This document shows positions 13,049 to 40,245 of a stretch of 64,000 bases of DNA, in pieces. Under the pieces are notes generated by a model. It saw nothing but the letters and a program-made list of their open reading frames with translations, was not told the origin of the DNA and did not search any database. Origin of the DNA: Geosiphon pyriformis uo1 (taxonomy: Eukaryota > Fungi > Glomeromycota); assembly GCA_016748015.1 (NCBI GenBank), contig JAAOMT010000786.1, positions 1 through 64,000 on the forward strand. Reading direction: 5' to 3'. The position numbers were made by a program, and so were the translations under genes. Position 1 is the stretch's first letter. Every line of letters begins with the position of its first letter.

Positions 13049-13091
13049 TATAATCCTACAGAAAACCAGCACTAACAACAATCATCTAAAA

Positions 13092-16000: not shown

Positions 16001-17937
16001 GAGGAGGAATAATTGATGTAGAATACATAAGAAATATTATTGCAATGCTACAAAATGACTCAGAAAAGACATATATCATAGATCCAAACAAAAAAATAGC
16101 ACAGGCAATATTTCTGCTTTTGGTTAAAATAGTTCAATTAGTATTAGTAGGAAACAGAGAAGAATTAGGAATTACAACTAGAGGGATACAGGAATTTAGA
16201 TCCACAGATAGAATAGATATACTGGTTAATATGGCAGAAGAAGAAATTATTGACAAGAGAGAAATTATCTTTACCTGTTAACCAATTTCTATTTTACCAT
16301 ATGACCAGTACATAGTAGTCATAGAAAGAAAAATAAAAGATCAGATACAGATTTTTGAAGCAGAAGCAACATTTTGTGAATTAGGAAAGATCAGATTAGT
16401 CAATCTATATATACTAGCAAAAAATCACAGCCACATCAAAATCCCCATTTACAATAATACGGAAGACATTATCAAGATACCAGAAAGAACTACCATTGAA
16501 TACTTGACCACAGAAATTGAAAACCAACTTTCAGACACTATTCCAGACTTTCTACAACTGTGTGGATATGTAGATATCACATCTCAAATCATATACGATG
16601 TTACTGGAGGTTTTTGGTCTCTTCTTAGCTTTTGTATGTTTGTTGTAATGCTGTTAATTCACAACTATGGAAAGTGTTTGAACCTCCAATAACTGAATTT
16701 TATCCTTTTAAATTATCTCCTATAATTCGAATTGCTGGACTTATAGTAGAATGGCCAATTCTATGCCAGTTACTTTGTATAGTTACATTGTAGTAAACGT
16801 CAACTTTTTCCCAAAAATTGCTCATCTGAAAACTTACTAAAAATTGTGTAGTTACTTTGCTGTAAAAGTCAACTCTTCTACAGAAATCTCGTCTGTAGAC
16901 TACTTTAATGATTGTAATAAGAAAAAAAAAGAAAAATAAAAGAAATGCAAAAGAAATAGAATTTTATCAAGAGAAACGTTTTTCTATTCAGGCCTAGAGT
17001 CACTAACAGTTTACTGAAATTGGTAGCTAATCAATTTCAAAACATTAGTTGGGTTTTGGGGATTTTCCAAGTGCAATAATTAAAGAATTTGGTTTTTCAA
17101 ATTATTTGATATTTATTTCTTTTTTTTTTTGTGTGTAGAAATGGTTCTAAGTGATAAATCTAAAGTAAGATATATTTTCTTGAAAAGAAAAGCTCTTCTT
17201 TTATACAACTTGTCATAACACTATTCTATGAACTTGAACTTTGCTCTTTTCTACAATTTCGCTGAACTAAAGATACATTTCGGTGAACTACAAGTTATTT
17301 TTGCAAACTATTAGATATTTTGGTAAACTATCAATTATTTCTACAAATTTTTACAAATTTCGGCAAACTTTTTGAATGTTATATAGTTCGGGGTATTGCA
17401 TAATTGATCATCACAATTAGGTTATATTTGTGTTATGTACAAATTGGGTTATTAATTAAATGATGATTTCGGATATTTTGCTAATGTAATAAGTGATAAT
17501 TTAAAATGCTAATTAATGATAAAAATTATAAGGGTAATTTCATGCTAAGCAATATCTCTAATTTTGTTTGGTAACAATGGATGAGAAGAATATTATCTGC
17601 TTCAACCAGAACAATTGGAACAGATGAACTTGGGAAATCTAGATCTATTACAATGTATGCAACTCAAGATGTTACTTAACAACTTCAATAATATCTTTAA
17701 AAATGAGAATAAATTTGGCAGAACTGACATCATCCAACACCAAATCAAGACTAAAAATGCAATGCAATTAAACAGAAAGCATACAGAATACCACCAGCTA
17801 GCCATAAGATAATTTGTCAAGAAATCAATCGGATGTTTGACAATGGGCTAATTCAGCCATTAATGAGCCCATGGTTATTACCAGTGATACTAGTCTGTAA
17901 GAAGAATGAGAAAATCCACTTTTGTGTGGATTACTGG
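13092..17937 (+). pseudogene. Element A gag-pol 5' part (Gag, CCHC knuckle, protease deleted, dUTPase, start of RT); interrupted by a solo LTR
   Basis: Retrotransposon gag-like segment, CHYCGKQGHLRNDC, dUTPase motifs DTGFDL/ASRNS/GGIID.EY/IAQAI/RGIQEFRST, FGRTDIIQHQI. Confidence 0.85.
16599..17576 (-). mobile_element. Solo LTR of an unrelated family inserted in element A
   Basis: TGTTAC...GTAACA ends; TSD ACGA/ATGG (ancestral ACGG). The host frame QIIY/G.EEYYLLQPE rejoins across it. TATAAAA and AATAAA lie on the minus strand. Confidence 0.75.
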
Positions 17938-18693
17938 TGTTATTCATAAAAAAGAAAACAGATATAGAAAAATAGTAAACCAATAAAAGAGTAGTAGTTA
18001 GCATATGAGCACATTGCTTGAGAAATTATAGCACATTGCTCAAAAATGTGAACAATCTCATAGAACCCAAATTATGTATATATAATGGTAGCATTAGAAG
18101 TAAAAAAGACAGACCTTTTAGTTTAGATTTTATTTAAGCCATCTTCTAATCCACAAATATCAATAAATAATTATTTTTTATCTCTAATCCACTCTCTACT
18201 ATCAACACTTCATGTTAATAGTTATTAACACTTAACTACTCTAGAACAATAGCTCTTGATCATGGCTATTAATAGAATACTAACTTGTATATTGCCTTGG
18301 CTCATTTCTTTATTTTTTTTTATTTTTTATTTTTTTTAATTTTATTGTTGCATACTAATTAATTAAGGATTAAAGTGCTGAGTTATTGATGTTATGGATA
18401 GCTTGGTAAAAGACCCAGAAATAAAGGTAGAATCATATATATATTAACGGATAGCTTACCAAAAGAGCATGACTGTTAAAATAAACTGGCCACCATATTA
18501 AAGACAGAAATTGGAAAAACAACTCACCAACCAACTATATTGTCATTGAATTTCTGTCCATTATACAAAAAACTCAATTCTAAAAACCTTTAAATACACC
18601 CTACATATCAGTATTACCAGCATTATTAAGATATTGAGCACTAAGTTATGAATTTGTTATTTGATTTGAGACTCCAAATAATCATTTGTAACA
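17938..18693 (+). repeat. 5' LTR of element B
   Basis: TGTTATTC...TGTAACA followed by the PBS TGGTGCTCCCTGTGAG. Confidence 0.9.
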
Positions 18694-18755
18694 TTTGGTG
18701 CTCCCTGTGAGATATAATTTTACAAAGAATCAACACCAACAACAATCATCCAAAA

Positions 18756-21494
18756 GTGGCAGAATTAGAAAACATAGAAGCAAACTATTTAGGATTCACT
18801 AAATCCTTGTTTTAACAGTACAGTCAACAATTAGAATTAAACAATAACCACTTTCCAGCAGAATTTGTCTTTAACTTCTATGTCAATAATAAAATTACAG
18901 ACTGTTTAAGAGGAACAGTTAATATTGAATCCGCAAAAAAAAATTTCTATACAGAATTATTTCAACATACCAGCTTACCAAGAAACTACAGTTTTGCACC
19001 AATCATCAGGAAAATCAATCAAATTATTGAAAGATACACACAACAACAATTCCCCATCACCTATGCAAACAAAGGCAAAGGAAGATTGCAAACACCAGTA
19101 GTAATATCAAAACAAATACAACCACCTACTTAAAAGAAAACCAGAGTTAAATCACCAACCAATTCATTATACTATTACACACCAGGAAGCACCATTAACA
19201 TCTCATCAACAGGTGTGTCCACATCACACATGACATCAACATTTGGCCAATTCCCATTTCAAAGTAAACAAAAGAAAACAGAGTTACTAGGAACTTACAG
19301 CAACTATTTTGAGGGATTTAAATCACAATCTCCAATGCCATCAGAATTTCAATTACTGCCATCTTAACCAGATTTTGGAAACGTGAGTCCTTGGGAAATA
19401 ACGGAATCAGAAAAAGAGGAAGAAAAAAAGCTGAAGATCAAAAATTTACTTACCAAAACACAATCTTAAAAAATCTAAAAGTTGAAACTCTGAACATTAA
19501 AACCCAGCAAACTCCGAATAATCTAAATCCTGAGTTAATTAATCAGAGAAACTTACCTTTAGTAATTGTTATTAACCAGCCACCAATTGGACTGATACTT
19601 GAACCAATCCCACAGCTGCCCCTTCAGCAACCTATTCAACCACTGCTTCAACAACTCCAACAGCTGCTTTAACAGCCACAACAACAACTGCAACCACCAC
19701 AACAACAACAATTGAACTTAGATCCAATGGCCTACATTCCAATAGCAAAACTAGAGAAGTTTATCAGTGAAGAAGATGATGCCCAAATATGGCTCAACAA
19801 TGTTGAAAAGACCATTATGACCAATGGATGGAATGATGCAAAAGCCCTCCAAGCCATCACTTATTTTCTCCAGGACACTACTGACTCATGGTATCAAAGC
19901 CTAGCCAACAAACCCCAGGATTTTAATACATTCAAGCTTGCATTTCTACAATATTTTAGTAATAATAATAGCATTAACCAATTGGCAAACACTTTCACCA
20001 CCATTAAGCAAAGAGAAACCAAAGCAGTCACTACTTACTTAGAATGCTTTTATAAGAATTTATGCTAAATTCAAGCCATCAACACCAATTATTTCACAGT
20101 GATCCAGATCCTAAATCAGTTTATTCGCAGATTATGCAGTAGCATCCTACAATGCATATATCTAATGTATTTCATTGATTTGCAAGCAGCCATCACAAAT
20201 GCCAGAGATTTTGAAGTTGCTGAATTAGAAGCCAACTACACCCAAGCAGTAAATCTAGTAATAAATGAATCATTTGACTTGGATTCCAAATTGAAGCAAT
20301 TCAGTAACTCAATAAATCAGAAATTAGAGGGATATTTAGTTGACAATCACATAATCTATCAACTTCCACAATGATGCAATAATTAAGGAAATGCAAATCA
20401 TTTCCAAAATCAATTGCATCCATTATCATCAACCAATCAACAGTAGTAACAAGAAACATGTGTTTGCCACTATTGTGGTAAACAAGGACACCTACAAATT
20501 AACTGCCATCATCATTTAAATAACCAACAATCAGGAAATCAGTATTGAAATCCCAATTGCCAGTTTTAAATTCCAAATAACCCACCAAACCCAGAGCCAT
20601 ATTATCAGAATTACCTATCTATGACGCAGCAGCCACTTTATCACCAGTATATTAAGTGCCAATTCATTAACTGATGACACCAGCAATTTATCAGCCACAG
20701 TCATAACTCATTTATCAGCCGCAGTCTTAGGTAATCTATCAGTCCCAACAAATTCAAATACTGCCACAGAACTTACCTCAAAACAGAATCCAAAGGCTGA
20801 GATTAACCCAACCAAGCTGAAGATTGTTGATGGTAGTTTACCAACTGATTCTCAGTTCTTCCACACAACCAGTAGGATTTTGACAATGGAATTCAAGCAC
20901 CAGATATGTCCAAAACCCAAATTCTCAGAACTATTTAAGTCTCCTGGTTACCCCAGAAGATGCCCAATCTAATAATCTGGAAACCAACCAACAAACAACA
21001 CTTACTAGCAATATTCTCCCAGCTACTATCACTGAGAATGAATTATTGAATGCCATCTTCCCATTTAAATTCGAAAAACTGTCAACCACACCATTATTTA
21101 GTGGAACCACTCTAGAAGAAAAACCTATTATTGCCATGTACACTGATGCCAAAGTTGATGGCCATTCCATCAAACTAATTTTAGACAGTGGATTAGCTGA
21201 CAGCATCATCATAAGACAACTCATGAACCAATTAGGTTGCCGAATTGACTGTGCTGCCAGTGCTAGAATCATAACCACTGATGGAACAACCAAAACTCCT
21301 ATTGGTAAGATTGATGACTTCTTTATCAAAGTCAACAGTATCATTGTCTCAATCAAAGTACTGGTTATGGAAGCCATCCAATACCAAGCACTCATTGGTA
21401 ATAATTGGCTATCTAAAACCAATGCATTGCTTGATTGAAATATGCAGGAGCTTCAAATTAACCAGAATGGCCAACACACATGTGTACCAGCCAC
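18756..21494 (+). pseudogene. Element B gag-protease part
   Basis: Gag (LDPMAYIPIAKLEKF...), CHYCGKQGHLQINC, aspartic protease LILDSG and ALIGNNWL. Confidence 0.85.
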
Positions 21495-22163
21495 TGTTAC
21501 AGTTTAAGAATTTAGCAAAAAGAATCATAAAAATAATACAAACTATTCAATCATAATATAGCACAGTAATAATTTTAGAAAGGTAATGATTAACATAGTA
21601 GCAAACACCATCTCGCGATAGTGGCAAGCACCAGTTCACAATAGCAGCCAACACCAACTGGTGATAGCAGCAAGCACCAGGTTGAAATATCAAAAAGAAA
21701 GTATTTTCTCATAGAACTACAAACATGTATAAATACAGTAGTTTTAATATTGGGAAAGAATCAATCAAGTAATAAAAATCATAACTTATCAAGCAATAGA
21801 TCCAATTTTATCCAACAAACTCCACTTTAAATCATACTTTCAAATTAAATATCCCAAGAAACCTTTAAAAATCAAAAAGNNNNNNNNNNNNNNNNNNNNN
21901 NNNNNNNNNNNNNNNNNNNNNNNNNNNNNNNNNNNNNNNNNNNNNNNNNNNNNNNNNNNNNNNNNNNNNNNNNNNNNNNNNNNNNNNNNNNNNNNNNNNN
22001 NNNNNNNNNNNNNNNNNNNNNNNNNNNNNNNNNNNNNNNNNNNNNNNNNNNNNNNNNNNNNNNNNNNTATCACACAAATAGAATTGAGGAACTCACGAAA
22101 GACTGATTGCAATTAAAGCAGGATATCAGCAATTAAATATAACAAGAAAACCATCCCATAACA
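21495..22163 (+). repeat. 5' LTR of element C (contains assembly gap 21880-22067)
   Basis: Matches 29522-30378 on both sides of the gap. Confidence 0.9.
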
Positions 22164-22245
22164 TTTGGTGAACCCTATGAGGAAAGAAAATCAAAAAAGA
22201 AATAATAATTAGCAATAATTCATTGCTAAAAAGGAAAAGACAAAA

Positions 22246-25200
22246 GTGGCGACAAAAACCCCTAATCTTACTGTTCTTGAATTCTGCCATGCTATTTACA
22301 CACAAAATCAAAGTGATCTTGGATTACCAGAAGGGTGTTGTCCAGCAGAATCTGCCCTCACTTATTATATCAACGCCAGAATAAATTATTATATAGGAAA
22401 GGAAGAAGAACCACACGATGCAAAACTTGGATTGTATAGAGAATTATCACAATACACTACAAAAGAAGTAGCAGTAATAGCCGCAACTATTGTCAAAATC
22501 CATCGAGAAATTGAGCAATATGCCAACGAAAATCTTCCAATATCCACAGGAAACACTAGGGAACGTGCCAACAAAACCAAAGAAAATTTAGAAACTAATC
22601 AGGAAAGTAACCAGCAAAAACTAGAAACACCAGCTCAAACGCCAAAAAAAACTGTCACTCAATCAATAAAGAAACAACGTATTTATTCACCAGAAGATAA
22701 ATCATACCATTTTTTCACCAGAAAATAAGATACAAATTCCATTAGGAGCTGCATCATCATCAACATCAACTCCACAAACGCCAAAAACTCCTAGTTATAT
22801 TGATAAAATTAAACAACGTAACTGAGGAGACATACCAATTACAGGAGGATATTCATCACTATTCCAAAACTCTCTTTTTCAGCCAAAATTTAGAACGGGG
22901 TTTGAAAACAGTGAAGAGGAGTCTGAATCAGAATCCGAAAAAGAGACCAGCGAAAAAACAATCACAAGACCAGTCACTGGAACAAGCAGCCAGTCCAGAA
23001 ACCAAGAAACTCGTGATCAAGAGAAAGAACCGAATATAAGGGAAGCCACCTTTAGGAATGCTCAAGGAAATATCATCCCATCTCCTCTTAGATCAATAAA
23101 CCCACCAGCAGAAAACGGCAACGAAATGACCACACCATACATTGCAAGACTAACAGATTTCTCAGGAGAGAAAAAAGAAACAGACATGCACATATGGCTC
23201 AGAGAAGCACAAAAAGCCATCTAGGCAAATAACTGGAATGACCAAAGAGCAATTCAAACATTACCTTTCTTCCTGAAAGGCACAGCCAACTCGTGGTATC
23301 AAAGCCTGGAAACAAAACCCACAAGCTTCGCCAAATTTAAAAATGCACTCCTGGAGTATTTTAGCGACCCAAACGCCGTAATCCAACTACAGAACGAATT
23401 CAATACTATTAAGCAAAATACCAGTGAAACTGTCACCCAATACTTTGCTCGATTCAATCGAATTCGCCGTCAGATTGAAGCGATTGAACAAGGATACTAC
23501 ATTGATTCTCAGGTTTTAAATCAGTTTATTAGAGGATTAAAAAGCAGCATTTTAGNNNNNNNNNNNNNNNNNNNNAAATAACTGGAATGACCAAAGAGCA
23601 ATTCAAACATTACCTTTCTTCCTGAAAGGCACAGCCAACTCGTGGTATCAAAGCCTGGAAACAAAACCCACAAGCTTCGCCAAATTTAAAAATGCACTCC
23701 TGGAGTATTTTAGCGACCCAAACGCCGTAATCCAACTACAGAACGAATTCAATACTATTAAGCAAAATACCAGTGAAACTGTCACCCAATACTTTGCTCG
23801 ATTCAATGAATTCGCCGTCAGATTGAAGCGATTGAACAAGGATACTACATTGATTCTCAGGTTTTAAATCAGTTTATTAGAGGATTAAAAAGCAGCATTT
23901 TAGGAAAAGTATGCCCTGCCCACCCTAATTCCTTACCAGAAGCCATTACGCTCACCAGAGCCCTTGAATCGGCTGAGAAAGAAGCTAACCATAGTCAAAT
24001 GGTTAACATGGTAATGGAGGAAAATAAGACAGAAACATTAGAGAAAAGAGTAACGCGATTAGGGGAGGAACTTTCTAAGAAAATAGAAAGTTACCTCATC
24101 CCGGATCTGAGAAAAAATACATACCAACCACCCCAAAGACGCAGCCAGGAAGTCAGCGACAGTCGAAATAATCACCCGTCGTGCCAGGAATTCAGAACAG
24201 AAACACGCGCCTGCCATTTTTGCAAACGCGTAGGACATTTGATTAGTCAATGTCGAATGCGAATGATGCAGGAAGCACGCGAAAATAATTACTACACACC
24301 ACCCCAAATGCCCAGAAACCAGTACATGCCAATACCACGCCAATATCCCACCACGTATCAAAATCAAGGAGCTTACCAGCAACAGCCCATGATAGCCAAC
24401 CCGAATTGGTGTCCTGAGGCCCAAAATCAGCCCATATAGAACCAGAATGCGTTGGTCCAGAGGAATCCAAACCGTGCCAGAACCAATCAGCAAACCAATC
24501 CAAACTACCAAAATTATCAACAAACTTACCTTAATATACCGGAAAACCTGATCATCGGAAACAATGACGGTAGAAACATAAACAAAACCAAGAATTCCTC
24601 CAAATTGAGCCAGACAATACCACCAGCAGTTGCCACCGAAGATAGCAGCCTCGCAGCTATTTTTCCTTTTGAATTAGAGGAAAACGAGGCTATGTTCAGT
24701 GGAGCAGCATTGGACGAAAAATGCCCAATCACTGCTATGTATATGGAAGCCACTGTAAACAATACCCCAATCAAACTTATCTTAGACAGCAGATCCGCTG
24801 GAAGCATCGTAATGCTTCAACTAGTAAACCAACTGGGTTTCAAAGTTGATCGTGCCGCGACATCCCAAATCATAACAGCCGATGGAAGTACAAAGCTGCC
24901 TTATGGTGAAATCGACTCATTCTCTTTCGAAATTAACGGCATAGTAATACCTACAAAAGTATTAGTAATGGACGCTACACAATATCAAGCGTTAGTAGGG
25001 AATGACTGGCTAACAAAAGCCAACACCACCCTAGACTGGACCACCCAAGAGCTTCTGATCAATTATAATGGCCACCAGGCCAAAATTCCAGCCACCTGTG
25101 GCCACTTCCAAAAACCCAGCGCCAACCAAAGACCTACCTTCGAATTTGAGAAAAATCCAGCACTACCAGTCATCGAAACCTATCAGCTCTCTTGGGCTGA

Positions 25201-27492
25201 TGACCAAAGAACAGGACTACCAGCCGTACCAACGTGGACCAGCGAAGAAAGATCCGAATGGAACCAGATAAGTTCACGAAGAAACCACCAGTGACGCAGA
25301 CCAAAGCTAGAATGCTCGGTTTGCAAGAAAAAACTCTCGTCTATGACTGCATGCAGCGCACTGGACGAAGACCCAAGAAACCCCACCCACTACTATTGTA
25401 ACCATTGTAACAAAGAAAAATATGGTTACCCAGAAAGACACGGAAAATGGGACGAGGAACCGTGCCTCGCTTGTGGAGAACCGTTACCAAGAGGGTGCGA
25501 CTGGAACGACTTACCAGGCAGAGGAGGAACATGTGACACAACTTGCCAATACACGATTCTCATCTGTGACTGGGTAAGAGGAGGAACGCCGTTCGAAGCA
25601 GCATTCAACAGAGTGTTAAAAAGACTACAGCACTACTCACACGACGAGGACGAGTTGTACAACACCGCACAAGCCAAAGTAAGAGGAGGAACCGCCGAAG
25701 AAATACGACGTTGGAAAGAGATGTGTATAAGAGACAGACTTCACTCATTAAAAGAATAAAAAAAAAAAAAAAGACAATTAAAGAAAAAGACCTAATATTT
25801 GAGCCCTACCCAGAAACTTGCCAACAGTTTCTCATAGGACTTACTAACCTTTTTATTCCAGCTGATAAAGCTCAATGGATAAAAATTCCTATCGCAAACA
25901 CCACAGAAGAACCCATCTACATTCCGGAAGATACCATCATTGGATACCTCGGAACAGAGCTAGAAAACGCGTCAACACCACAAGAAATTCTAAATTTCCC
26001 AGAAATCGCCCTCTACTGTGAACTCACTTCAATAAATTGGCAACAACTGGTAGAATGCTATCAATTTACGCCAGAAAAATTGGCCAAATTAAACATTAGA
26101 ACAATGGATCCCGACCAACAGCGACAATTAAAAGCATTAATTTTAAAATACTCTGATATATTTTCAAAAAATAGCGAATTTGGAAGAACCAACTTGGTTC
26201 AACACCAAATCCCCACTGGAGACGCCAGACTTGAAAAACAACGCACTTACCGTGTCCCACCAATGGAGCATAATTTTATCAGAAAAGAAGTCCAAAGCAT
26301 GTTGGAAAAAGGAATAATACAACCATCAATGAGCTCATGGTCCTCACCAGTTGTTTTAGTAAGGAAAAAGAACGGAAAAATTAGATTTTGTGTCAATTAT
26401 CGCAAACTAAACAGCAAAACAACCAAAGACTCATACCCAATACCGTTAATTGACGAAATCTTCGACGTTTTTGGAGGAGCAAAATGGTTTTCTACACTGG
26501 ACTTAACCAGTGGGTACTAACAAGTGGAAATGGATCCAAAGGACAGGCATAAAACAGCATTTACAACACAAAATGGCAATTATGAGTTCAATGTAATGCC
26601 ATTTGGATTAACAAACGCTCCCATGACATTCCAAAGACTAATGGACGTAATTTACTCCAGAATCCTGTGGCAATCCGTTGTTGTCTACTTGGATGATACA
26701 AATGTTTTCTCGTCAAAATTCACGGATCATCTCCAACATTTACAACAAGTTTTTGAGAGATTGAGACACGCTGGACTTAAACTAAATCTAGAAAAATGTT
26801 TCTTTGGGAAAAATGAGCTAGCATTTTTAGGACACGTAGTTGGAAAAGATGGAATAAAACCAGATTCATCAAAAATAGACAAAGTGAAAAATTTTCCAGT
26901 ACCTTGAAATGTCTCAGAAGTTAAAAGCTTTTTAGGACTCGCATCTTACTATTGCCACTTTGTAGAAAACTTTTCAAACATTGCCAAACCCCTTAATTAT
27001 CTACTATCTAAAAATGTGAAGTTTGAATGGACTGAAGCACAACAAAAAGCTTTCGAGTACCTTAGACAAAAGCTCATTGAATCACTAATAATGATCTATC
27101 CGAATTTCAACAAAAAATTCATTTTGGCCACAGATGCCTCTGGAACTGGACTTGGAGTCATTCTGTCACAAAAAGATGATAATAGAAGAGAACGTGTAAT
27201 CGCTTATGCCAGCAGAAGTCTCAGTACGGCAGAACAAAACTACGCAGCACATAAACTTGAATGCTTAGCAGTAGTCTGGAGTTGTGTTCACTTTGACACA
27301 TATTTACAGTACCAACCCTTTGAGATTACGACAGATCATAGAGGTCTGGTCTGGTTAAATAACAAGAAAGCGCTAAAAGGAAAATACGCCAGATGGTCAC
27401 AAACATTAGCACCATACGATTATATTATCAAATACAAAGAAGGTACCAAAAATGCTAATGCCGACTGTTTGTCAAGAATGAGACACACATAA
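22246..27492 (+). pseudogene. Element C Gag-PR-Cys-rich-(dUTPase-like)-RT-RNaseH polyprotein, few lesions, locally misassembled
   Basis: CHFCKRVGHLISQC, LILDSRS, RFCVNYRKLN, MPFGLTNAP, YLDD, ATDASG, ECLAVVW, TDH, NANADCLSR then stop at 27490-27492. Confidence 0.9.
25719..25737 (+). other. Nextera/Tn5 mosaic-end adapter (assembly artefact)
   Basis: Exact AGATGTGTATAAGAGACAG; the flanks are non-contiguous parts of the element. Confidence 0.97.
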
Positions 27493-27521
27493 AAATCACC
27501 AACCCACCCGCCACAACAACA

Positions 27522-29059
27522 ATGAACAACCACCTTTACAAAAACCTCAGCCAATACTTGGAAACACTACAAATAGACGAAGAAATGCCAGTAAAAGAGC
27601 TAATTAAGCTCCAAAAATTAGCAAAACACTATTTCATCCAAAATCACATACTTTATTACCGGAATCGACAAAATCCAGATAATCCATTAAGAGTTATAAC
27701 CATGGATGAAAAAGAAACTATCTTATTTAACATGCACTCAGATATTCATTCAGGCCACTTTGGAAAAACAGCAACCATCCAACGTGCAACTAGCCATTAC
27801 TATTGGCCAAAAATGAGCTCAGACATAATCCAATACATAAGAAATTGTGACCCATGCCAACAAAGAGGAGGAGCAAAAACAACGGAATTATTAAGACCAA
27901 TAAAAGTTGGACAGCCATTTGACAGAATCGGAATTGATTTAGTTGAACCCTTACCAATAACAACAAGAAACAACCATTATATTGCAGTAGCCATGGACTA
28001 TCTCACCAAATGGCCAGAAGCTAGAGCTATTAAAACAGCTGATGCTATTTCTATAGCTCAATTCGTACATGAAGACTTAATTTGCCGACATGGATGTCCA
28101 CAAGAATTGCTATCAGATCAAGGCACACACTTCGTAAACAGCACCTTAAAAGAACTTAGCCAAAAATTTGGAATCAAGCGACCACTGTTATCACCATACC
28201 ACCCTCAAACAAATGGATTAGTTGAAAGATTTAATCGCACATTAAGATGTGTATAAGAGACAGCTATAGTAACTTAGAATTTAATAAAGAAATTAACTTT
28301 GATTTCGATGGAGCTCAATCTTATAAGGAGGGGATAATGTTATGGTTTAAGAATTTAGCAAAAAGAATCATAAAAATAATACAAACTATTCAATCATAAT
28401 ATAGCACAGTAATAATTTTAGAAAGGTAATGATTAACATAGTAGCAAACACCATCTCGCGATAGTGGCAAGCACCAGTTCACAATAGCAGCCAACACCAA
28501 CTGGTGATAGCAGNNNNNNNNNNNNNNNNNNNNAGATACTACACAATTCACACCGTTCGAACTAGTTTATGGAAGAAAAGCCACATTACCCATTGAACTT
28601 ACTATTCCAACTTATCCGAGTGACACTATCATGGAAGCAACATTCCAGGAAACACTACTTAGAAGAACATACGAATTAATGGGAACTTTAGAAAACAAAA
28701 GAAGAAAAGCAGCACAAAATATTGAACAATCACAAGAACAACAAAAAGTGAGACATGATAACCAGTTACCAGATAATATAATTAGCTACAAAATTGGAGA
28801 TAAAGTATTGTTGCATCGTACAAAAATGGAAAAACAGTGGAGTGAAAAATTTGATCACAAGTGGGATGGACCATTTTATATTCACAAAATACTTGGAAAT
28901 AGAGCATACAAGCTAAAACTAGATGATAAAATATTAAGAAAAGCAGCACATGGTAACCGGCTGAANNNNNNNNNNNNNNNNNNNNAGAACATAATTTCGA
29001 ACCATATAATATTGCCAAATATAACACCAAATTTATTAGCAAAGTTATTGAAAAATTAG
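27522..29059 (+). CDS. Element C stand-alone integrase ORF (HHCC + rve core + SH3-like C-terminus), broken by an artefactual insert 28245-28533
   Basis: Own ATG at 27522; HSDIHSGH..YYWP..CDPCQ, IGIDLV, SDQGTHF, YHPQTNGLVERFNRTL, then TPFELVYG and KWDGPF. 3' end uncertain because of the gap. Confidence 0.85.
28245..28263 (+). other. Nextera/Tn5 mosaic-end adapter (assembly artefact)
   Basis: Exact AGATGTGTATAAGAGACAG, followed by a misplaced copy of the ORF3-end/PPT/LTR start (28264-28513). Confidence 0.97.
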
Positions 29060-29085
29060 AGATAGCATAGGGCAATACATTAATA

Positions 29086-29508
29086 ATGGAAGAAATAGAA
29101 ATAAGTGAATTAACACCAGACACATTTAGCAACTTGAAAACGAAATTCCCAATTAATTACTGTTATTATCAACTAGGAAAGCACTTGAACATACAAACAT
29201 TATACTCAAAAGACTCAACTAGAGTGTTTGACAAAACAACTATCCAACTATTAGAACCTTTCATTGGAAAAACCAATACTACATTCCATTCAAAAACAGT
29301 TTACAGAATTTTCAAAGCATTTGAAAACTGTCACAAATTATTGTTGGACCCAACCATGAACATAATAACAACCAACAGTATTGGACGACTTACCAACTTG
29401 CAATTTCAAGAATTACAACAACAAATTAATAACACAGTATTGAACCACTATAGTAACTTAGAATTTAATAAAGAAATTAACTTTGATTTCGATGGAGCTC
29501 AATCTTGA
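29086..29508 (+). CDS. Element C ORF3, 140-aa protein of unknown function between integrase and PPT
   Basis: Intact ATG-stop ORF with homologous frames in A, B and D (NYCYYQLG..LNIQ.LY, F.GK.N, GK.TN.QF.EL, DFDGAQ). Confidence 0.8.
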   Translation: MEEIEISELTPDTFSNLKTKFPINYCYYQLGKHLNIQTLYSKDSTRVFDKTTIQLLEPFIGKTNTTFHSKTVYRIFKAFENCHKLLLDPTMNIITTNSIGRLTNLQFQELQQQINNTVLNHYSNLEFNKEINFDFDGAQS

Positions 29509-29521
29509 AAGGAGGGGATAA

Positions 29522-30378
29522 TGTTATGGTTTAAGAATTTAGCAAAAAGAATCATAAAAATAATACAAACTATTCAATCATAATATAGCACAGTAATAAT
29601 TTTAGAAAGGTAATGATTAACATAGTAGCAAACACCATCTCGCGATAGTGGCAAGCACCAGTTCACAATAGCAGCCAACACCAACTGGTGATAGCAGCAA
29701 GCACCAGATTGAAATATCAAAAAGAAAGTATTTTCTTGTAGAACTACAAACATGTATATATACAGTAGTTTTAATATTGGGAAAGAATCAATCAAGTAAT
29801 AAAAATCATAACTTATCAAGCAATAGATCCAATTTTATCCAACAAACTCCACTTTAAATCATACTTTCAAATTAAATATCCCAAGAAACCTTTAAAAATC
29901 AAAAAGAAATATTTAAAACTGAACTATCACAACCCAAAGTATTAAGAAACTTACTTGTATTATTTATTGAATGAAACTATCATTCATCAACTGAAACCCT
30001 TGGAAGAATAATCCTTGATCAAGATTATTCACGTTGTTACTAATTGATAAAAGCTTTATTGTGAGAATTAGAAAAGCGCTAAAGACCATTAACATTCTGT
30101 GTTTCTAGATTAGAGAAACACATCAGACAATTGCAAAGATAGCCTCAGAGAAGACCCCAGACAGTGGGTAGATTTCAGTTCAGCCTCTGAGAAGGAGTAC
30201 ATAAACACACACAACAATCAAGAATTAAAGAATAACTTACATCACAACAGTAAAAAGAAAGCCTTCAGTGTAACAGTGACATTATCACACAAATAGAATT
30301 GAGGAACTCACGAAAGACTGATTGTAATTAAAGCAGGATATCAGCAATTAAATATAACAAGAAAACCATTCCGTAACA
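29522..30378 (+). repeat. 3' LTR of element C
   Basis: Preceded by the PPT; TGTTA...GTAACA; followed by the TSD CCAC. Confidence 0.93.
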
Positions 30379-33300
30379 CCACATATGGCTATTTTAAAAC
30401 CACCAAATTGACAATACCACTCATTGAGTTCAAGAAAAAAGAGAAGAAATCTATTTGGAAAGCCTATCAAGTGTTATGGATTGAAAAAGACCACAACAAG
30501 TTATCACCAATACTCTTCTGGAACAATAATGGAAAAGAGAAACAAAAGAAAAGACTTACCTAAAACACCAACCAAGACTGGGAAACAAACAATGACTCAA
30601 ATAAACTACCAACCTGGAAATAGAAAGAAACTGACAAAGGAAAAAAAAAAAGAAAGAAGAAGATATAACTAAAGGAACCACCACCACAGAAAAAATAACT
30701 AGTGGCTGGAAAAAAGAATACTCACAGGAACTGATCAAGGAACCCCTATATATACCTCTCAAATGTAAGGACTGTGGGAAGAAACTTTCTTCTATGGGAG
30801 CTTGGGTTGTGCCAGATGAAGATTACTAGATGCAAACCCACTATTATTGTAAGCCTTGTCACTGCAAACACTATGGCTACCCAAAAAAACAAGGCAAGTA
30901 GGACAACAAACCATGTCTTACTTGTGGTGAACAACTATTGGACAAAGAAATGTGAAACAACATTCCTGAATGAGGAGAAACATGTGATACTTTATGCCAA
31001 TACACAATTCTTATCAGCAATTGGGTGAGTTATGGTATGCCAATAACTGCTGCCTGACACCATGCGATATTTCACTTGGATGATTACTCACACAATGAAG
31101 ATGAGATCTGATAGATGGCAAATGCCAAAGTAGCAGATATCATGCCTAGCAAAATATTAGAAATTAAGAACAATCCTCTGGAGCCAGTCAACATTGTTCT
31201 GATTCCCAATCCAGATGCTTTTCTGGACCTGGAAGCAGGCCCAGAAGAATTTCATGAGCACTACCAAAATTTGGCACTAACAAAAGAGGAACAAGAGCAG
31301 TGGTTAGCCCAAATAAACACCCGACTATGTAACTATTGTTTGATCTCATGTGACTTTTAATATTGTAATGAGTGTGACCTCATTTACAATCCACCACCAT
31401 GCATGATCTACATGATTCCAGAAGAGAAACCAATCAGCAGCTGCACATTGGAATTGGAATCAACTTTCAATCCTGATTCAAACTCTGACAATGACAACAA
31501 CAAAAATAACAGTTCCAGCTCTGCTCAATATGACAACAAAGATAACAATGATTTGGACTCCAATTCAAATCCCAAAACATACATCGCACTCCTTGATCTT
31601 ACCAAGAAGCAAGAACTCAAATGGTTCAGCAATAATAATAAAGATATTATGCCAGAACGTGTACATAATACTAATGCAGGGTTTGATCTGAAATATCCAG
31701 GGAAATATCCCATTAAATTAGAACCACATTTACACACTTGCATTGATTTGAAAACAGCACTGGAAATTTCAGCAATGACAATAGTTCAACTAGCATCCAG
31801 GAGTAGTTTAGCAAAAAAGGAGATTAACATTAGAGAAGGAATAATTGATACAAGATACATAAGAAATATTATTGCTATGCTACAAAATGACTCAGAAAAA
31901 GCATATATCATAGATCCAAATGAAAAGATAGTACAAACAATCTTTCTATCTCTGGTGAAAGTAGCTCAGCTAGTGTTAGTGAGAAACAGGAAAGAATTAG
32001 GGATTACAGCTAGAGAGATACAAGGGTTTAGATCAATGGGTAGAATAGATGTACCAGTTAATATGGCAAAGGAAGAAATTGTTGACAAAAGAAAAATTAT
32101 CTCCACCTGTCAATCAATTTCTATTCCACCATATGACCAGTATATGGTAGTTATAGAAAGGAAAGTAAAAGATCAGATACAGATTTTTGAGACAGAAGCA
32201 ACACTGTGTAAATCAGGAGAGATTAAACTTATCAATCTTCACATACCAGCCAAAAACCATAATCACATTAAAATTCTCATCTACAACAACACAGGAAATA
32301 TTGTAAAGATACCAGAAGGAACCATCATTGGTTATTTAACCACCGAAATTAAAAACCAACAGCCAAACATCATTCCAGATTTTTCACAACTATGCAGATA
32401 TGTAGATATTACATCACAAACCATATACAGATGAAAAAAATATTATCTGCTCCAACAGGAACAATTGAAACAGATGAACATGAGGAACTTAGACCCACTA
32501 CAATATATGCAACTTAAGATGTTACTCAACAATTTCAATGACATCTTTGCCAGTGAAAATGAATTCAGCAGAATTAACATAATCTAGCATCAAATTAAGA
32601 CCAAAGATACAATGCCAATTAAACAACAAGCATACAGAGTACTACCAGCCAGCCATGAAATCATTTGTCAAGAAATCAATCAGATGCTTGACAACAAATT
32701 AATTCAATTATCAATGAGTCTATGGTCATTACCAGTAGTATTGGTCTATAAGAAGAATGGAAAAATCCATTTTTGGGTGGACTACCAAAAACTGAATAAA
32801 GTAACTAAAGGTGATAGCTATCCAATACCAAAGATCCAAGAATTATTTGATGTTTTTGGCAAGAAGAAATAGTTCTTAACATTAAATTTAGACAGTGGTT
32901 ACTGACAAGTAGCCATGAAGCCAGAAGATAAGGAGAAAACAGCTTTCACAACACGAGAAGGGAATTTTGAAGTTATGTCATTTGGCTTGATGAATGCACC
33001 AGCAATATTCCAATGGCTTATGAAAATTGTCTACACTAGACTACTGTGAAAATTAGTAGTTGTTTACTTAAATGACATCAATGTGTTCTCAAAAACATTT
33101 GATGATCATCTACATCATCTCCAACAAGTGTTTAAAAGACTAAAAAGAGCCAAATTAAAGCTAAATGCAACCAAATATTTCTTTAAAAAAACTGAACTTA
33201 AATTTTTAGAGCATGTTGTAAGCAAAGATGGAATCAAAATGGATCCAGACAAGATTAAAACTGTCAAAAACTTTCCAGTACCAAATAATCTCACAGAATT

Positions 33301-33862
33301 GAGAGCATTCTTAGGATTTGCTGGATACTACTACCACTTTATTAAAGACTTTTCCAAAATAGCTCAACCACTATACCAGCTCTAAACAAAGAACACCAAA
33401 TATAAATAGACAGAAACCCAATAAGAAGCTTTTGATACATTAAGAAGAAAGCTTATTCAAGCTCCAGTACTGATCTATTCAGATCATAGCAAGCCATTTA
33501 TAATTACAACTGATGCATCTGGTCAAACATTGGGAGCAGTACAGAAAGGATCAGATGGAAGAGAACATCCAGTAGCTTACACCAGTAGAAGTTTAAGTCC
33601 AGTGAAAAAGAACTATAGAACTCCAGTACTAGAATACTTAGCTATCTATTAGGCTGTCATCAAATGAAAAAAATACTTGAGTCAGAAGTTTGATGTATAC
33701 ACTGATCACAAAGGATTGACTTTAATCCAGAAGCAAGAATTTGGAAACAATTGCCATGCCAGATGAAAAATAGAACTTTCATCATTCAATTATACAGTAC
33801 ATTATAAAAAAGAAAAAAACAATAAAAATACCAATGGATTGTTACAAATGAGACAAATCTAA
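30379..33862 (+). pseudogene. Element B pol continuation: Cys-rich domain, dUTPase, dUTPase-like domain, RT, RNase H
   Basis: CKDCGKKLSSMG, THYYCKPC, NAGFDL/ASRSS/GIIDTRY/QGFRSMG, WVDYQKLN, TDASG, TDHKG; stop at 33860-33862. Confidence 0.87.
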
Positions 33863-35899
33863 AAACATTTCAACCCAAAAATATAACAAAAGATGAATAT
33901 ACAAAAATACCAACAACTCCAACATTATATAAATACCCAATTGTTCAAGAAAAAATTATCTTAACAGGAACAAAGAAACATAAAACAACAATCAAAATAT
34001 TTTATCAACCATCAAAATATACTTTACCAGAGGAACAGAAGAAATCCAGATTAACCAACCAGAGTAATCACTAAACTAGAGAAAGAAACAATACTATTTA
34101 ACATGCATTCAGATCCAACAGTAGAACATTTTCATAAAGAAGCAACCATGGAAAGAACCAAAAAAAGATATTATTGGTCATTAATATATCCAGACATTAT
34201 TCAATACGTTTAAAGTTGTAATGCTTGTCAAAGAAGAGGTGGAACAAAACTCAGTGAATTATTAAGACCAATCAAAGTAGAACAACCATTTGACTGTATT
34301 GGAATTGACTTAGTAGGATCATTAACAATCACCAGTAGAGGCAACAAATATATTGCAGTAGCCATGGACTATCTCACTAAATGGCCAGAAGCAAAAGCCA
34401 TTCAAAGAGCAGATGCAGAATCTGTTGCTGAATTCATTCATCAAGATTTGATTTGTCAACACGAATGTTCAAAAGAACTACTATCAAATTAAGAAACCCA
34501 CTTTGTGAACAGAACATTGACAGAATTAAGTCAAAAATTTGGAATTAAAAGACCATTATCATTATCATACCATCCACAAACAAATAGCTTAGTTGAAAAA
34601 TTTAATAGAACACTATGTGAAGCAATAGCCAAAATTAGCCAAAAAAATCAGGACAAATGGAATTTGTTTATACAGTAAACTCTCTCTATAGTCCCTTTGG
34701 TTATAGTCATTATCTTCTTATAATCATATTTTTTTAAAAACCAAAACCATTTATATATAATATTATATCCTTATAGTCACTTTTACTATATATATCTTCT
34801 TATAGTCTCTATTCTCATAAATATGATAGCAGAATATAAGTAATTTTCACTCTCTATAGTCACACTATAATTATATAATATTAGATATGAACATTAGATG
34901 TCATCTCATATTTAATCAGACATATATAGCCAGAGAAATTTCTTGATTTGTCAATGGAAATCATTTTTTTTATGATAGTAAAAAAAATTAGAGAAGTTTC
35001 TGGAAATGATTGTAGAACACTAAACAAAATTTCTCAAATATTACAACATTCAATTACTCTTCTTTATAAGCTGCCACTGCTATCAGAAGACAATAATGGA
35101 ACTATTATATCTGGCTTGTTGTTTGCGGGTATTCTGAGAGTTTTAATAATAGTTGACATATGGTACAGTACTGCTGCTTTTGGTGCTTTGGAGACTAGTG
35201 GTGCTTTAGAGACTAATAGTGCTTTGGAGACTGTTGCTGCAAGTATCAATGAAGTTACTTTGGATCAAATTTTGGCTAATGAGATTACTTTTTCTCCATA
35301 TTGGAAGAAAAAATTAACAGATTTACAAACAAGAATAATGGTCTAATGGGATTCTTCGAGAACAAGTTTGTTAATGGGATATTGCTTGAGCAAATCAACT
35401 GGGAACAGAGTTCAAATTTACCTTTCCTTAGGAAGAGAAATGTAACCAGTAATAAAAATCAGAGCATAAGGATTCTAATATATACCCAATAAATACATTT
35501 TCACACCAACTTTGACATTCACAATTAAAAAAGGGCTCTATACTAGCAATCATATTCATTATTTGACCAATATTTAGTATTAGCGAGCAAAAGTTTGACT
35601 GATAGTTTTAAAGATGTATTAAAAATCAACTTTTTTGGAGCAAATAAATCCATGTTGTATGCTTTTCATAATCCAAACATAATCATGCAGAATAGAGATT
35701 CGGATCTAGACTCAACATATAATGTTTTAAAAATACCAATTATAAATGGTAATGCATCCAACCCAAAGTAAACAAAACTGTACACAATACAATATATTTC
35801 TAACTTCTTGAAAGATATTTATTAGGCTGTCACATGATTAACTTAATAAGCTTCGAAAACATGATTACTTAAAAGAGGTATTAAAGAGTTAATAATAGG

Positions 35900-36868
35900 T
35901 AATAGTTGTGAATTTATTAACAGATTTATATTTTTTGATAATCTGCTTCTTTACTTGTTACTGGAATTGGTTTCTAAGTACCTAATAATGTTTTCTTAAT
36001 TTGCCTTGTTTTAAGAAAGTCTATTCTTTTCATCTATGCAATTTCACTGAATTTTTTCATTTTTTTGCTTAATATTCATTCATGGCCAATATCATAAAAA
36101 ACATGATTAAAGACATTTGGATTTACAAACTGTGTCTTTCTTATCTGAACTCAAAATTGATTTGATTCAGCAATAAAGCTAAGACATATACAAGACCTAT
36201 ATATTTAACTTTTAGAATATCCGATAACATTAAAAAGATTAGTATGTAATCTCTTAAATTTGATACAGTTGCACACTGCAATTTCCCAATGCCATTGTAA
36301 AAGTGTAAAAGGAATCAATAATTTGAGTGTTTTGTTAAATTTTTCAAGTATTGTATCATGGCCTTGATGTTAATTTGAAAGTTTAGATCAAGAAATTACA
36401 ATTTTTTCCTGAATCAGCTTGCAAACTTTAGGCTTCAATTGTAGCCATTGTTCTTTATTAGCAATTTCAATTAATTGGTAAATAAAATAGCACCAAACAG
36501 ACCAAATTAATGCAAACATTTGTCTAGCCGCAAGTTTTAATGAAGACCTATTAAAACAAACTCCAGTGCAAAAGTTAATAATTGCTTGTAAATAAAAAAA
36601 GACTTGTTCATACTTTAATCTGAACATGAGATCTGTTTTATTTTGGGCCTATTCTAAGTAATCTTCAACAGATGAATTTTTCTTAGAAACAATATATGGC
36701 CACATTAATTTGGAAGCTATTGCATGCTTATATATATTACATATTGAATCTCATAACTTATAATGATCAGGACATTTTTTAAAAAACTGCAGTTGACTTT
36801 CACTCCAATATTTCTGACATTGTGCAAAGTATTTTATATCAATATTTCAATTAATATAGGCATTGCTG
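35900..36868 (-). pseudogene. Degraded second reading frame inside the pogo element (captured gene or transposase-like fragment)
   Basis: One frame of >300 codons whose stops fall at plausible Trp/Gln/Arg positions: ...KCPDHYK..LMWPY..YEQVFFYLQAIINF..HQGHDTILEKFNKTLK..HWEIA... Confidence 0.6.
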
Positions 36869-37237
36869 TGTTTAGAAAGCTTAACAACATAACATTGTGC
36901 TATCTTCTATGCAATTATGCAAGTATGCAAAGGATCAAATTAACAGCCTTTATTATTGATCATCAGTTGGGAGTAAGAGGCAAAAAGTGTCGCAGATATA
37001 TTATCGAAATTAGGTTTTTTTTTACCAAAAATCTGTTATTTGTACTTAGAATCCTACAGTTAGATTAAAACCTTCATTTTTATAATTTGGCCTGCTTTTT
37101 ATAATCTGAAGCACTTCATATAACATGAGACACCTCACATGTCCGATTAGATATAAGGCAAAATAACATTTGAGACATAATAGATACATCAACGCATTAT
37201 AAAAGCAAAATGCAATAAAAAGTGTGTTTTTATTAAC

Positions 37238-38796: not shown

Positions 38797-39574
38797 AATA
38801 TATATAATTGGTTATTATATTATGCATGTGATATATAGATCATGTGATAAGATATTGATCATTTTTTATAGTCCCATCTCTCTATAGTTACCACAAATGT
38901 GCTGACCAAAAAGTGTGATTATAAAGAGAGTTCACTGTACTATCAGTATTATTTGCTTATCGGACAATAAAGCAAGATACCACATAAGCAACACTATTTG
39001 AATTGGTATACAGTAGAACAGCAACATTACCAGTTAAGATAGAAGTCAAAATATATCCAACAGAATTAATAACAGAAGATAATTTCCAAAAAACATTGTT
39101 AAAAAAAACATATGACTTAATGGAAACACTAGAAAACAGATGACAAAAAGCAGCTGATAACATCTAAAAGTCACAAAAAAAGCAAAAAAAACAACATGAT
39201 AACCAACTATCAGACAAACCAGTTAAATTTAAGATTGGAGACAAAGTATTATTACATTGTACTAAAACAAAAAAACAATGGAGTGGAAATTTGACCCCAA
39301 ATAGGACAGATCATTTCACATAAAAAAAATTCTAAGAAATGGAGCTTATAAATTAAGATGGAACAACAAAATCTTAGCCAAAGCAACACATGGTAATAGA
39401 CTGAAACCATATCACCAGATAGTATTATCATCTACCAATAACATTCTACAATTGAGAGTACAAAGAATATTAGTTTAACCAGAGGAGATTCCACAAGATC
39501 TGGAATCAATCATAGTTATCAAACCAAACACATCAAATTGAACAACCAAAAGAATATATAAAGACACAGTATAC

Positions 39575-40231: not shown

Positions 40232-40245
40232 AAAAGAGGAGATAA

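Follow-up and report, generated by a model that had tools for sequence, protein, structure and literature searches.

A Ty3/gypsy-type LTR retrotransposon lineage with a separate integrase gene in Geosiphon pyriformis

The four LTR elements A, B, C and D found in a 64,000-nt stretch of the Geosiphon pyriformis uo1 genome (assembly GCA_016748015.1, contig JAAOMT010000786.1, positions 1-64,000, forward strand; hereafter the window) are degenerate members of a Ty3/gypsy-type lineage of LTR retrotransposons in which integrase (IN) is a separate gene. In canonical LTR retrotransposons and retroviruses, the position of IN inside Pol is the standard control of enzyme dosage and of IN loading into particles. 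Our comparison with the best 80 of 543 matching loci, which are interrelated so that all counts are non-independent, supports the three-cistron design of polyprotein, IN and a third reading frame (ORF3) as a feature that a large lineage has conserved rather than a result of decay. Judged from sequence signatures, we consider it an even chance that IN, starting at its own ATG, is made by termination-reinitiation on the genomic RNA after the RNase H stop.

All four polyproteins stop at the same homologous codon, four codons past the position at which the RNase H end motif finishes, and IN follows with a start position of its own, just as the sequence-only reading had claimed; the coordinates of stops and starts and the spacer lengths of 29, 30, 25 and 61 nt (C, B, A and D) were all confirmed. 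In C (plus strand), the TAA at 27490-27492 is followed by a 29-nt spacer (27493..27521) with 93% A+C, no AG and a predicted lack of structure, and then by the ATG at 27522. The B junction (33860..33895, plus strand) consists of the TAA at 33860-33862, a 30-nt spacer and the ATG at 33893; this spacer keeps the frame, although a second in-frame stop lies within it. At the A junction (42104..42134, plus strand), the TAA at 42104-42106 and a 25-nt spacer precede an ATA at 42132 in the start position, and at the D junction (49176..49242, minus strand) the TAA at 49242-49240 is separated by a 61-nt spacer with an internal duplication from an ATA at 49178. The spacers are 76-93% A+C, each with a single G and without any ATG, and the D spacer lacks AG as well. 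The proposal that both ATA codons are mutated ATGs fits the decay pattern of A, where ATA stands at 3/9 of B's and 5/16 of D's ATG sites, and is less typical for D, where it stands at 0/24 of the sites with an ATG in A or B. The RNase H end motif itself is intact in C only.

The description of the four elements as complete holds in so far as each has both LTRs, but every copy is broken and three are nested, with C inside B inside A. Element A (12224..45028, plus strand; LTRs 12224-13029 and 44220-45028, 91.3% identity) hosts B (17939..41015, plus strand; LTRs 17939-18692 and 40246-41015, 87.4% identity), which in turn hosts C, while D (46244..56438; LTRs 56438-55587 and 47098-46244, 92.8% identity) lies on the minus strand. 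The 5' LTR of C (21495..22163, plus strand) contains an N gap and is 98.4% identical over 385 nt to the 3' LTR (29522..30378, plus strand), which is preceded by a polypurine tract; a PBS-like TGGTG lies 2 nt past the 5' LTR, and the 4-bp target site duplication (TSD; CCAC/CCAC) is exact. In A, B and D, the copies of the 4-bp TSD are 1-2 transitions apart. LTR termini read TGTTA..TAACA/TAATA, and 83-100% of the LTR differences are transitions.

The Gag-PR-X-RT-RNase H frames of C (23810..27492, plus strand) are interrupted by stops and assembly artefacts. The 5' part of its IN (27522..28244, plus strand) carries the YPYY-type N-terminal motif, H2C2 and the DDE core. The end of this gene had been placed at 28244, which turned out to be an assembly artefact (28245..28533, plus strand) composed of an exact Tn5 mosaic-end (Nextera) adapter at 28245-28263, a chimeric copy of 29448-29697 and a 20-N gap; IN resumes at ~28535 with the SH3/GPF region (28535..28965, plus strand), followed by an N gap. 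The IN of B (33893..39412, plus strand) is split at ~34674-38937 by inserted DNA that carries the remnant of a DDE_1 transposase, and the IN remnants of A (42132..43367, plus strand) and D (47925..49178, minus strand) have 8 and 7 stops, respectively. ORF3 of C (29086..29508, plus strand) encodes 140 aa of a lineage-wide helical family, and remnants persist in B (39833..40225, plus strand), A (43826..44125, plus strand) and D (47118..47522, minus strand). C had been taken for a different family from A, B and D; in our tree, all four fall into one small clade (SH 99) and are therefore not independent cases of the split.

Given this state of the copies, the stops and frame changes might be no more than decay or assembly errors, as transition-made stops are abundant and C contains adapter chimeras. 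The C junction is, however, unaffected by the artefact at 28245, since the adapters are ~720 and ~1750 nt away, and all four elements stop at the homologous codon. Stop codons in these frames number just 2-10 per 363-476 codons; chance is excluded not by the four copies alone, but because intact loci outside the window repeat the same junction. Outside the window, every one of the 57 informative loci is split, and long intact ORFs are present in many of them, so that we regard this reading as refuted and give it practically no credence.

Within the best-80 set, none of the 57 loci that extend over the end of RNase H has it fused to IN, young intact elements included. L010, L020, L051 and L076, with terminal repeats 97-100% identical and a full-length IN frame, are all split; fused young copies, which would have spoken against the earlier proposal, were thus not encountered. 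For the 55 loci with a called ATG, stop and start overlap in 14 (offsets -1, -4, -8, -11 and -20; e.g. TAATG or ATGA), and 33 have a spacer of 24-111 nt, with all three frames represented. A stop-start distance within ~20-30 nt is confined to the 14 overlaps, three spacers of 24-26 nt and A, B and C of the window, and is not seen in the other 38 of the 55. The upstream polyprotein spans 700-2000 codons, IN ends at ~410-430 aa, and a conserved helical ORF3 comes after IN in 36/44 loci, with none found in the other 8/44. From the layout first proposed, Gag-PR-X-dUTPase-RT-RH followed by IN and ORF3, the three cistrons are conserved lineage-wide, whereas X and dUTPase are not general: dUTPase occurs in 1/80 loci of this set and is missing from C.

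RNase H and IN could still be rejoined by an intron, readthrough or a frameshift, with IN cut from a polyprotein after all, which would account for packaging by the usual route. The same IN clade does contain six fused proteins, two of them (P0199 and P0452) with a Met near the IN start, and these few fused relatives share the IN/RT radiation with the split elements. Against this, the 36 spacers are spread over the three possible frames (8/14/14), and 7/9 in-frame ones contain further stops. An in-frame GT..AG intron could be accommodated without loss of the final RNase H Asp and of Tyr6 of IN in 6/40 junctions, in three of these also as the GTR..YAG variant. None of the four window junctions permits a fusing intron, the second observation that could have overturned the earlier proposal. 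Rejoining would also leave the start-codon signatures unexplained, and we consider it very improbable.

These signatures make the IN ATG behave like a genuine start codon. Met1 of the stand-alone IN is invariant in alignments of 48 and 67 rows, and an ATG occupies IN profile position 1 in 73/80 DNA loci of the best 80 of 543. After dereplication of this set to 62 loci, an A is present at -3 in 51/62 compared to 111/365 internal ATGs, the +5 position is A in 62/62, and the second residue is D, E or N in 62/62. Within the spacers, ATG is the most depleted of the 64 trinucleotides (2 observed versus 19.8 expected), while a control region shows no depletion (37 versus 30.1). The nearest ATG upstream of the IN start is located before the RNase H stop in 39/42 loci, and 10 overlap loci have ATGs 7-69 nt upstream without depletion. 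This placement is more easily reconciled with ribosomes that reach the stop than with scanning from upstream. Some depletion is also seen for out-of-frame ATGs over the final 10 codons ahead of the stop of spacer-type loci (10 versus 18.3).

If IN is indeed produced by termination-reinitiation, post-termination 40S subunits would resume initiation in place where stop and start overlap and elsewhere scan the short AUG-free spacer to the IN AUG, which would yield less IN than Gag-Pol. Precedents are fungal viruses and SART1/LINE-1, including one 63-nt spacer (PMC5972666, PMC10275272). Overlapping stops and starts as in the 14 loci are known from the hypovirus CHV1, victoriviruses and, with TURBS, caliciviruses and influenza B, and the short spacers of LINE-1 resemble those of the 33 spacer-type loci. 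Here, however, the upstream ORF is a long LTR-element polyprotein. TURBS and victorivirus systems moreover require an upstream structure, whereas 33-36 short-tail loci share no folding near the stop (mean z -0.18 to 0.52, pseudoknot-free modelling; none in the full 36) and the spacing varies widely within one lineage. A predicted hairpin over the stop in A (z -3.0) and D (z -1.9) is missing from B, C and the lineage at large and was rejected as a general signal. TURBS-type restart also drops beyond ~30 nt (PMC10275272), and most spacers here measure 40-111 nt.

Depletion of ATGs before the stop is likewise expected from a subgenomic mRNA with a short leader, generated by splicing of an LTR leader or from an internal promoter. 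Such an mRNA would fit the strong Kozak-like context, the AUG-free leaders and the mild shortage of ATGs directly ahead of the stop where a spacer is present, and the third cistron requires expression, too. Besides, foamy virus offers a precedent, with a Pol that has its own AUG and no Gag fusion and is packaged via genomic RNA elements (PMC7828637). There, the entire Pol including IN is separate and made from a spliced mRNA; here IN alone stands apart, and the search for an acceptor gave no signal: branch-point-like 5-mers slightly exceed shuffles (39 versus 31.1 of 59), but the 60 nt before the ATG are not enriched in YAG (40 versus 38.2) or in branch point plus YAG (8 versus 8.3), and the C and D spacers have no AG at all. 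A sigma-70 promoter scan stayed at chance level, this being a bacterial signal and irrelevant for a eukaryote. A subgenomic mRNA would not need the tight stop/start overlap, and the overlap loci carry competing ATGs 7-69 nt upstream. On balance, we deem this route unlikely, yet worth serious consideration.

As a third route, ribosomes could enter the genomic RNA internally, without reliance on upstream translation, using a bulged hairpin or the A/C-rich unstructured tract as entry site. Indeed, in 24/73 loci with a called ATG a 35-nt bulged hairpin motif ends 4-33 nt upstream of the IN ATG, and it occurs once more in a locus that lacks a called ATG, always on the plus strand. In 97% of cells its positions pair, 7/10 pairs show double-sided changes, and its covariation score was equalled by 0/500 shuffles. 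It lies downstream of the RNase H stop, as an internal-entry element could, which counts against reinitiation; SART1 reinitiation nevertheless requires a structure downstream of the stop (PMC10275272). On the other hand, the hairpin is small for an IRES and absent from the window and from 54/80 loci of the best-80 set. Rfam 15 covariance models gave no match at E<=1 for 12 loci, nine with the full motif, and its exact pattern had 0 matches in viral contigs and prokaryote genomes. The hairpin could equally be an IN-binding signal, a packaging signal or a reinitiation aid, and we rate internal entry as rather improbable. Under reinitiation, it might help to recruit or hold the ribosome just before the AUG in this one sub-lineage. 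In either case, a free IN would have to reach the cDNA without being cut from Pol, possibly by binding the element RNA or the particle in cis, or alternatively by engaging the LTR ends later, like the related Ginger1 transposases.

ORF3 belongs to no known family as far as its predicted model and profile searches tell, and absent matches do not demonstrate a new fold. At E<=0.01, Pfam had no match for 22/25 candidate third ORFs, that of C included; the remaining three gave weak FapA and MutS_II matches and one HTH, and two of these lie outside the ORF3 family. With the confidently predicted model (pLDDT 95.7), Foldseek retrieved nothing from PDB or BFVD at E<=0.001, the best Z was 4.7, and an Atlas search with ORF3 of L050 gave no usable match. 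A profile search recovered 18 homologs, none informatively named; P0034, P0059 and P0273 exemplify IN or ORF3 annotated as host genes in these fungi. A trans-activator role of ORF3 in reinitiation is weakened by the 8/44 loci without it. The comparison suggests itself from Cauliflower mosaic virus, which also has tightly spaced long ORFs, variable spacing and a 3' accessory gene, whereas ORF3 has no Pfam or fold match to a known protein. To our knowledge, caulimoviruses have no integrase. The TAV protein needs no cis signal and tolerates spacings of a few to 700 nt, according to PMC5972666.

We file the elements as a Ty3/gypsy-type variant, non-canonical since IN lies outside Pol. They have TG..CA LTRs, a 4-bp TSD, a PBS-like site, a polypurine tract, the order PR-RT-RH-IN and a Ty3-type capsid. 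Among solved structures, Ty3 is closest to the RNase H region (E 1e-33; next 3e-18; retroviral 4e-8 or weaker), and RT-RH is nearer to Ty3 than to retroviruses or caulimoviruses. The Gag-PR-RT-RH-IN order is shared with Ty3 and Dictyostelium DGLT-A, the latter having a PBS 2 bp past the LTR and a single ORF (PMC5006619), but here IN is separate and a non-env ORF3 is conserved after it. Plant Tat elements likewise place an enzymatic domain in its own ORF, though this is an acquired extra RNase H, with IN within pol (PMC10508981, PMC13468544). Chromoviruses were rejected, as no chromodomain matched in window frames or relatives; so was Troyka, whose 5'-CG..CG-3' termini and 3-bp TSD (PMC12440569) disagree with the window elements. 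Kuafuorterviruses were compared and are a different thing, and an IN search against viral contigs gave three matches, all weak.

Judged against the wording of PMC2836005, the IN sequence carries the YPYY-group motif upstream of its zinc finger (Y/F12, P19, Y/F37 and Y/F45 in 60-65/67 rows). The sections of that paper available assign YPYY-motif Gypsy integrases to Athila/Tat-related groups, including Repbase Gypsy-1-I_RO of Rhizopus oryzae, and say nothing on a split IN. YPYY Gypsy elements and Ginger1 have a YPYY-type motif, a 4-bp TSD and TGT termini in common with our elements, and Ginger1 has the same IN type as a stand-alone protein. Ginger1 is, however, bounded by TIRs, lacks gag and RT and has a C-terminal OTU or Ulp1, whereas our elements are flanked by LTRs instead of long TIRs and encode gag, PR and RT-RH, so that an identity with Ginger1 DNA transposons was rejected. 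Two IN+Ulp1 proteins appeared among the IN matches, one inside the IN clade. The IN and RT trees, the latter by a quick method, consist of retrieved, mostly unnamed sequences. Named relatives come from Glomeromycota and Mucorales, and the split-IN lineage is probably one of Mucoromycota fungi. In line with the earlier expectation of novelty, the literature searched, which lay outside Repbase and left GyDB and most subscription papers uncovered, yielded no description of a split IN in Ty3/gypsy-type elements, nor one of its expression route for this element class.

In its widest reading, which we put forward tentatively as possible rather than probable, this is an old undescribed Mucoromycota LTR lineage that would be polycistronic by serial reinitiation, with a new RNA element and possibly a TAV-like ORF3. 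Its free Ginger1-like IN would act on cDNA ends uncut from Pol, and the lineage would be an extant link from LTR retrotransposons to integrase-type DNA transposons. With a stand-alone YPYY integrase inside an LTR element, Ginger1 DNA transposons could have arisen by a simple route, their origin from Gypsy having been left open in PMC2836005. A lineage without Pol-IN fusion allows two questions to be tested: by what means IN gets to the cDNA when no Gag-Pol tether exists, and how ribosomes of fungi start again downstream of a very long ORF. Its junctions form a natural series (overlaps, AUG-free spacers, the covarying hairpin) from which reporter constructs can be taken directly. Annotation pipelines that require RT and IN in one ORF would count intact copies of such elements as dead.

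At all four junctions of the window, the polyprotein frame of elements A-D ends with a TAA that lies four codons beyond the final residue position of the RNase H (RH) end motif. The spacer between this stop and the start of integrase (IN) measures 29 nt in C, 30 nt in B, 25 nt in A and 61 nt in D, with an A+C content of 76-93% and an ATG count of zero in each, and IN begins with ATG in C and B and with ATA in A and D. The stop positions, spacer lengths and start codons put forward by the sequence-only reading are exact at all four junctions. Self-comparison of the window revealed a nest of C inside B inside A, and D as a separate minus-strand copy. Each of the four has a pair of TG..CA-type LTRs that are 87-98% alike, together with target duplications of 4 bp, a primer site (TGGTG) 2 nt past the LTR and a polypurine tract. 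Since 83-100% of the LTR differences are transitions and the RT-RH frames contain 2-10 stops each, A-D are dead copies. The order Gag-PR-X-dUTPase-RT-RH assigned to the polyprotein is present in the related metagenome locus L063, as a single ORF of 1983 aa with a spacer of 34 nt behind it, but it does not hold for C, as dUTPase is present in A/B/D and missing from C. The X domain, which is Cys-rich and lies between the protease and dUTPase/RT (25295-25720 and 30812-31360), is common to C and A/B/D and had no match at E 1e-3 among the related loci and proteins compared.

Besides, C contains two library adapters, each 19 nt long and an exact match (25719-25737 and 28245-28263), which we take to be Tn5 mosaic-end (Nextera) sequences and whose joins are chimeric, and it is also interrupted by 20-N gaps. 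In consequence, position 28244, at which the stretch marked by the sequence-only reading ends, is an assembly break, and IN resumes near 28535. A 329-nt tandem duplication surrounds the 20-N gap at 23556, and the assembly across this part of C is unreliable. The integrase of B holds an insertion (34674-38937) that includes, at 38056-38418, what is left of a pogo-like DDE_1 transposase. Another related element, the fifth, is represented by LTR, gag and protease (59204-64000) and runs past the window end, with its junction outside the window. The regions 4368-10071, 16600-17580 and 56710-58162 comprise a strand-skewed stretch, a 63% repeat (6617-8070 vs 56710-58162) and a 1-kb TG..CA insertion in A, and possibly represent further elements; the ORFs tried within them had no Pfam matches. 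Myotubularin-like phosphatase fragments at 929-1505 (minus strand) are probably exons of a host gene.

A protein search with the IN of C returned 120 proteins, with length limited to 134-427 aa so that fused forms could not appear. The anchor motif is found in 109 of these 120, and 77 of those start exactly 78 residues before it, like C; as gene callers prefer Met starts, this shared start alone says little, whereas DNA loci are free of such bias. In our DNA set, the best 80 of at least 543 metagenome matches, ATG occupies profile position 1 in 73/80 loci, and none of the 57 loci showing the RH end is fused to IN. The stand-alone IN uncoupled from Pol, first noted in the window, is a trait of the lineage. 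Among these best 80 matches, 55 loci have both ATG and RH end: 14 stop/start overlaps (-1 in three, -4 in two, -8 in six, -11 in two and -20 in one), 33 spacers of 24-111 nt and 8 longer ones. Several split contigs combine a full-length IN frame with terminal repeats 97-100% identical, and therefore young copies are split rather than fused, a point the sequence-only reading had left to be decided. This comparative evidence argues that the split IN is real and functional.

Upstream of RT, some members have a stop whose frame runs on into the next ORF (L075:2500, L076:3360, L078:2884) or a frame change (L010, L020), which suggests that these members pass from gag into pol by readthrough or frameshifting. 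In the related protein P0230, dUTPase lies after RNase H and not before RT, which implies repeated gain or relocation of dUTPase. In one sub-lineage (L038:328-5163, L021, L074, L079), the polyprotein continues for 200-400 aa beyond RNase H, and this extension contains an acidic region as well as a domain rich in Cys/His that has no Pfam match.

Start contexts were counted in 62 dereplicated loci from the best 80 matches. The -3 position is A in 51/62 loci vs 111/365 internal ATGs, +4 is G in 54/62, and the second residue is D, E or N in 62/62; Met-D/E/N is an N-acetylation signature. Within 30 spacers (2134 nt) of the same best 80, ATG occurs 2 times vs 19.8 in dinucleotide shuffles (z -5.1), the lowest of the 64 trinucleotides with AAT close (-5.0), while 21 control stretches 3' of ORF3, the third gene, contain 37 ATGs vs 30.1 expected. 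The N-terminal 45 residues of IN include the YPYY-type motif and gave a high-confidence structure model in an intact relative. Judged by these sequence features, the IN ATG is a real start.

In 39/42 loci (best 80 matches), the AUG-free zone extends upstream at least as far as the RNase H stop, and the simplest reading would be that ribosomes enter the zone at this stop. We give an even chance to termination-reinitiation, in which ribosomes terminating at the RNase H stop would enter the AUG-free zone and restart at the IN AUG. In SART1 and in viruses of fungi, overlapping stop/start codons are a signature of this process, and LINE-1 reinitiates across 63 nt (PMC5972666, PMC10275272, both in part); such overlaps also occur here, in 14/55 loci of the best 80. 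Against reinitiation, no shared structure was found near the RNase H stop in the lineage loci examined, many spacers are longer than the TURBS range, and the 10 codons immediately preceding the stop in spacer-type loci (best 80) contain 10 ATGs vs 18.3 expected. Translation of IN from a subgenomic mRNA seems less likely than reinitiation: the splice acceptor signal is not enriched within 60 nt of the ATG, and in the 10 overlap loci of the best 80 other ATGs are as frequent as expected, at distances of 7-69 nt upstream. We consider internal ribosome entry less probable still. A rejoining of RNase H and IN is hardly to be expected, since spacers occur in all frames, additional stops interrupt 7/9 in-frame spacers (best 80) and 6/40 junctions of this set could accommodate a fusing intron; at the window junctions, an intron removing stop and spacer is possible in 0/4.

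A 35-nt motif ends 4-33 nt upstream of the IN ATG in 24/73 loci of the best 80. It is predicted to fold into a lower and an upper stem, with a purine-rich bulge of 11 nt between them and a loop of 8 nt, as in L079:3353-3387, a covarying, bulged hairpin directly before the IN ATG, with 23 other loci likewise. Pairing is kept in 97% of cells, with two-sided changes in 7/10 pairs (21 distinct rows). Slid controls and shuffles score far below the motif, and these controls lean in favour of the hairpin, as its structure was read from the same, related sequences. Among the best 80 loci, a covariance model gave 25 strong matches and 1 weak match; the window yielded no match to it, and Rfam had none for the hairpin. 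All 20 loci with the Cys/His-rich tail domain after RNase H have the hairpin, and L048 has it together with a short tail.

ORF3 constitutes one family of about 140-240 aa, window copies included, which was found in 36/44 loci with enough downstream DNA (best 80). In L075, L081 and L083, where the polypurine tract comes straight after IN, ORF3 is missing. Its fold is predicted to be all-helical, and our guess would be a translation activator or an IN adaptor. A small, unrelated HTH-like ORF is found at the place of ORF3 in L020 (6546-6944).

Searching from the RNase H side, IN was contained in 37/120 longer proteins. An RT-RH tree was built from 133 rows, after removal of 48/181 rows that covered less than 300 aa. 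A 95-row clade in this tree (SH 99) takes in each of the 29 DNA-verified split rows and each of the 44 proteins whose end lies within 30 aa of RNase H, besides 21 rows with a tail but no IN and 1/30 fused rows. Named proteins of the lineage come from Rhizophagus, Dentiscutata, Paraglomus, Rhizopus and Lichtheimia, and the window therefore probably belongs to a glomeromycotan host. Of 150 representatives from an IN search without length limit, 80 are fused, 23 stand alone from Met1 onward, and 47 are partial or of another form. Ranked by single-domain score, the top 25 contain 16 stand-alone forms, 2 fused ones and 7 others. A single 49-row clade of the IN tree (SH 100) unites the whole set of 43 stand-alone rows with 6 fused proteins. 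A quick RT tree of 48 rows scatters the fused rows from this clade among split rows, with mostly weak support; a tree joining 19 split rows (32/48 rows) is 19.5 log-likelihood units higher (p-AU 0.725). A single origin of the split IN would be compatible with these data, which do not show it. The IN matches P0441 and P0406 are stand-alone, Ginger1-like integrases with a C-terminal Ulp1 domain, and P0441 sits within the IN clade of the lineage. Integrase clusters of L037, L075 and P0402 occur in assemblies labelled Acidobacteria or Nitrososphaeraceae, likely due to fungal contamination of bins.

Based on RT-RH, domain order and LTR features, we classify the lineage as a Ty3/gypsy-type element, but it lacks the canonical placement of IN within Pol. 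Chromovirus, Troyka and Ginger1 were considered, and the lineage belongs to none of the three. Its YPYY-type IN motif is shared with Ginger1 transposases and a few Gypsy groups, e.g. Gypsy-1-I_RO from Rhizopus oryzae (PMC2836005, in part), and this Repbase family may be a member of the lineage. The parts covered of PMC12440569, PMC2836005, PMC10508981, PMC13468544, PMC11673190, PMC3248453, PMC2864245, PMC11952901, PMC6839031, PMC5006619, PMC7828637, PMC10275272, PMC5972666, 10.64898/2026.05.21.726589 and 10.1101/2022.12.01.518749 contain no description of a split IN, nor of a clade defined by it, as the sequence-only reading had allowed for; the tables of elements that accompany PMC2864245 and PMC3248453 may be relevant here. 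Within this literature, the lineage apparently represents an undescribed Ty3/gypsy gene organisation, with a split IN and a predicted translation route.
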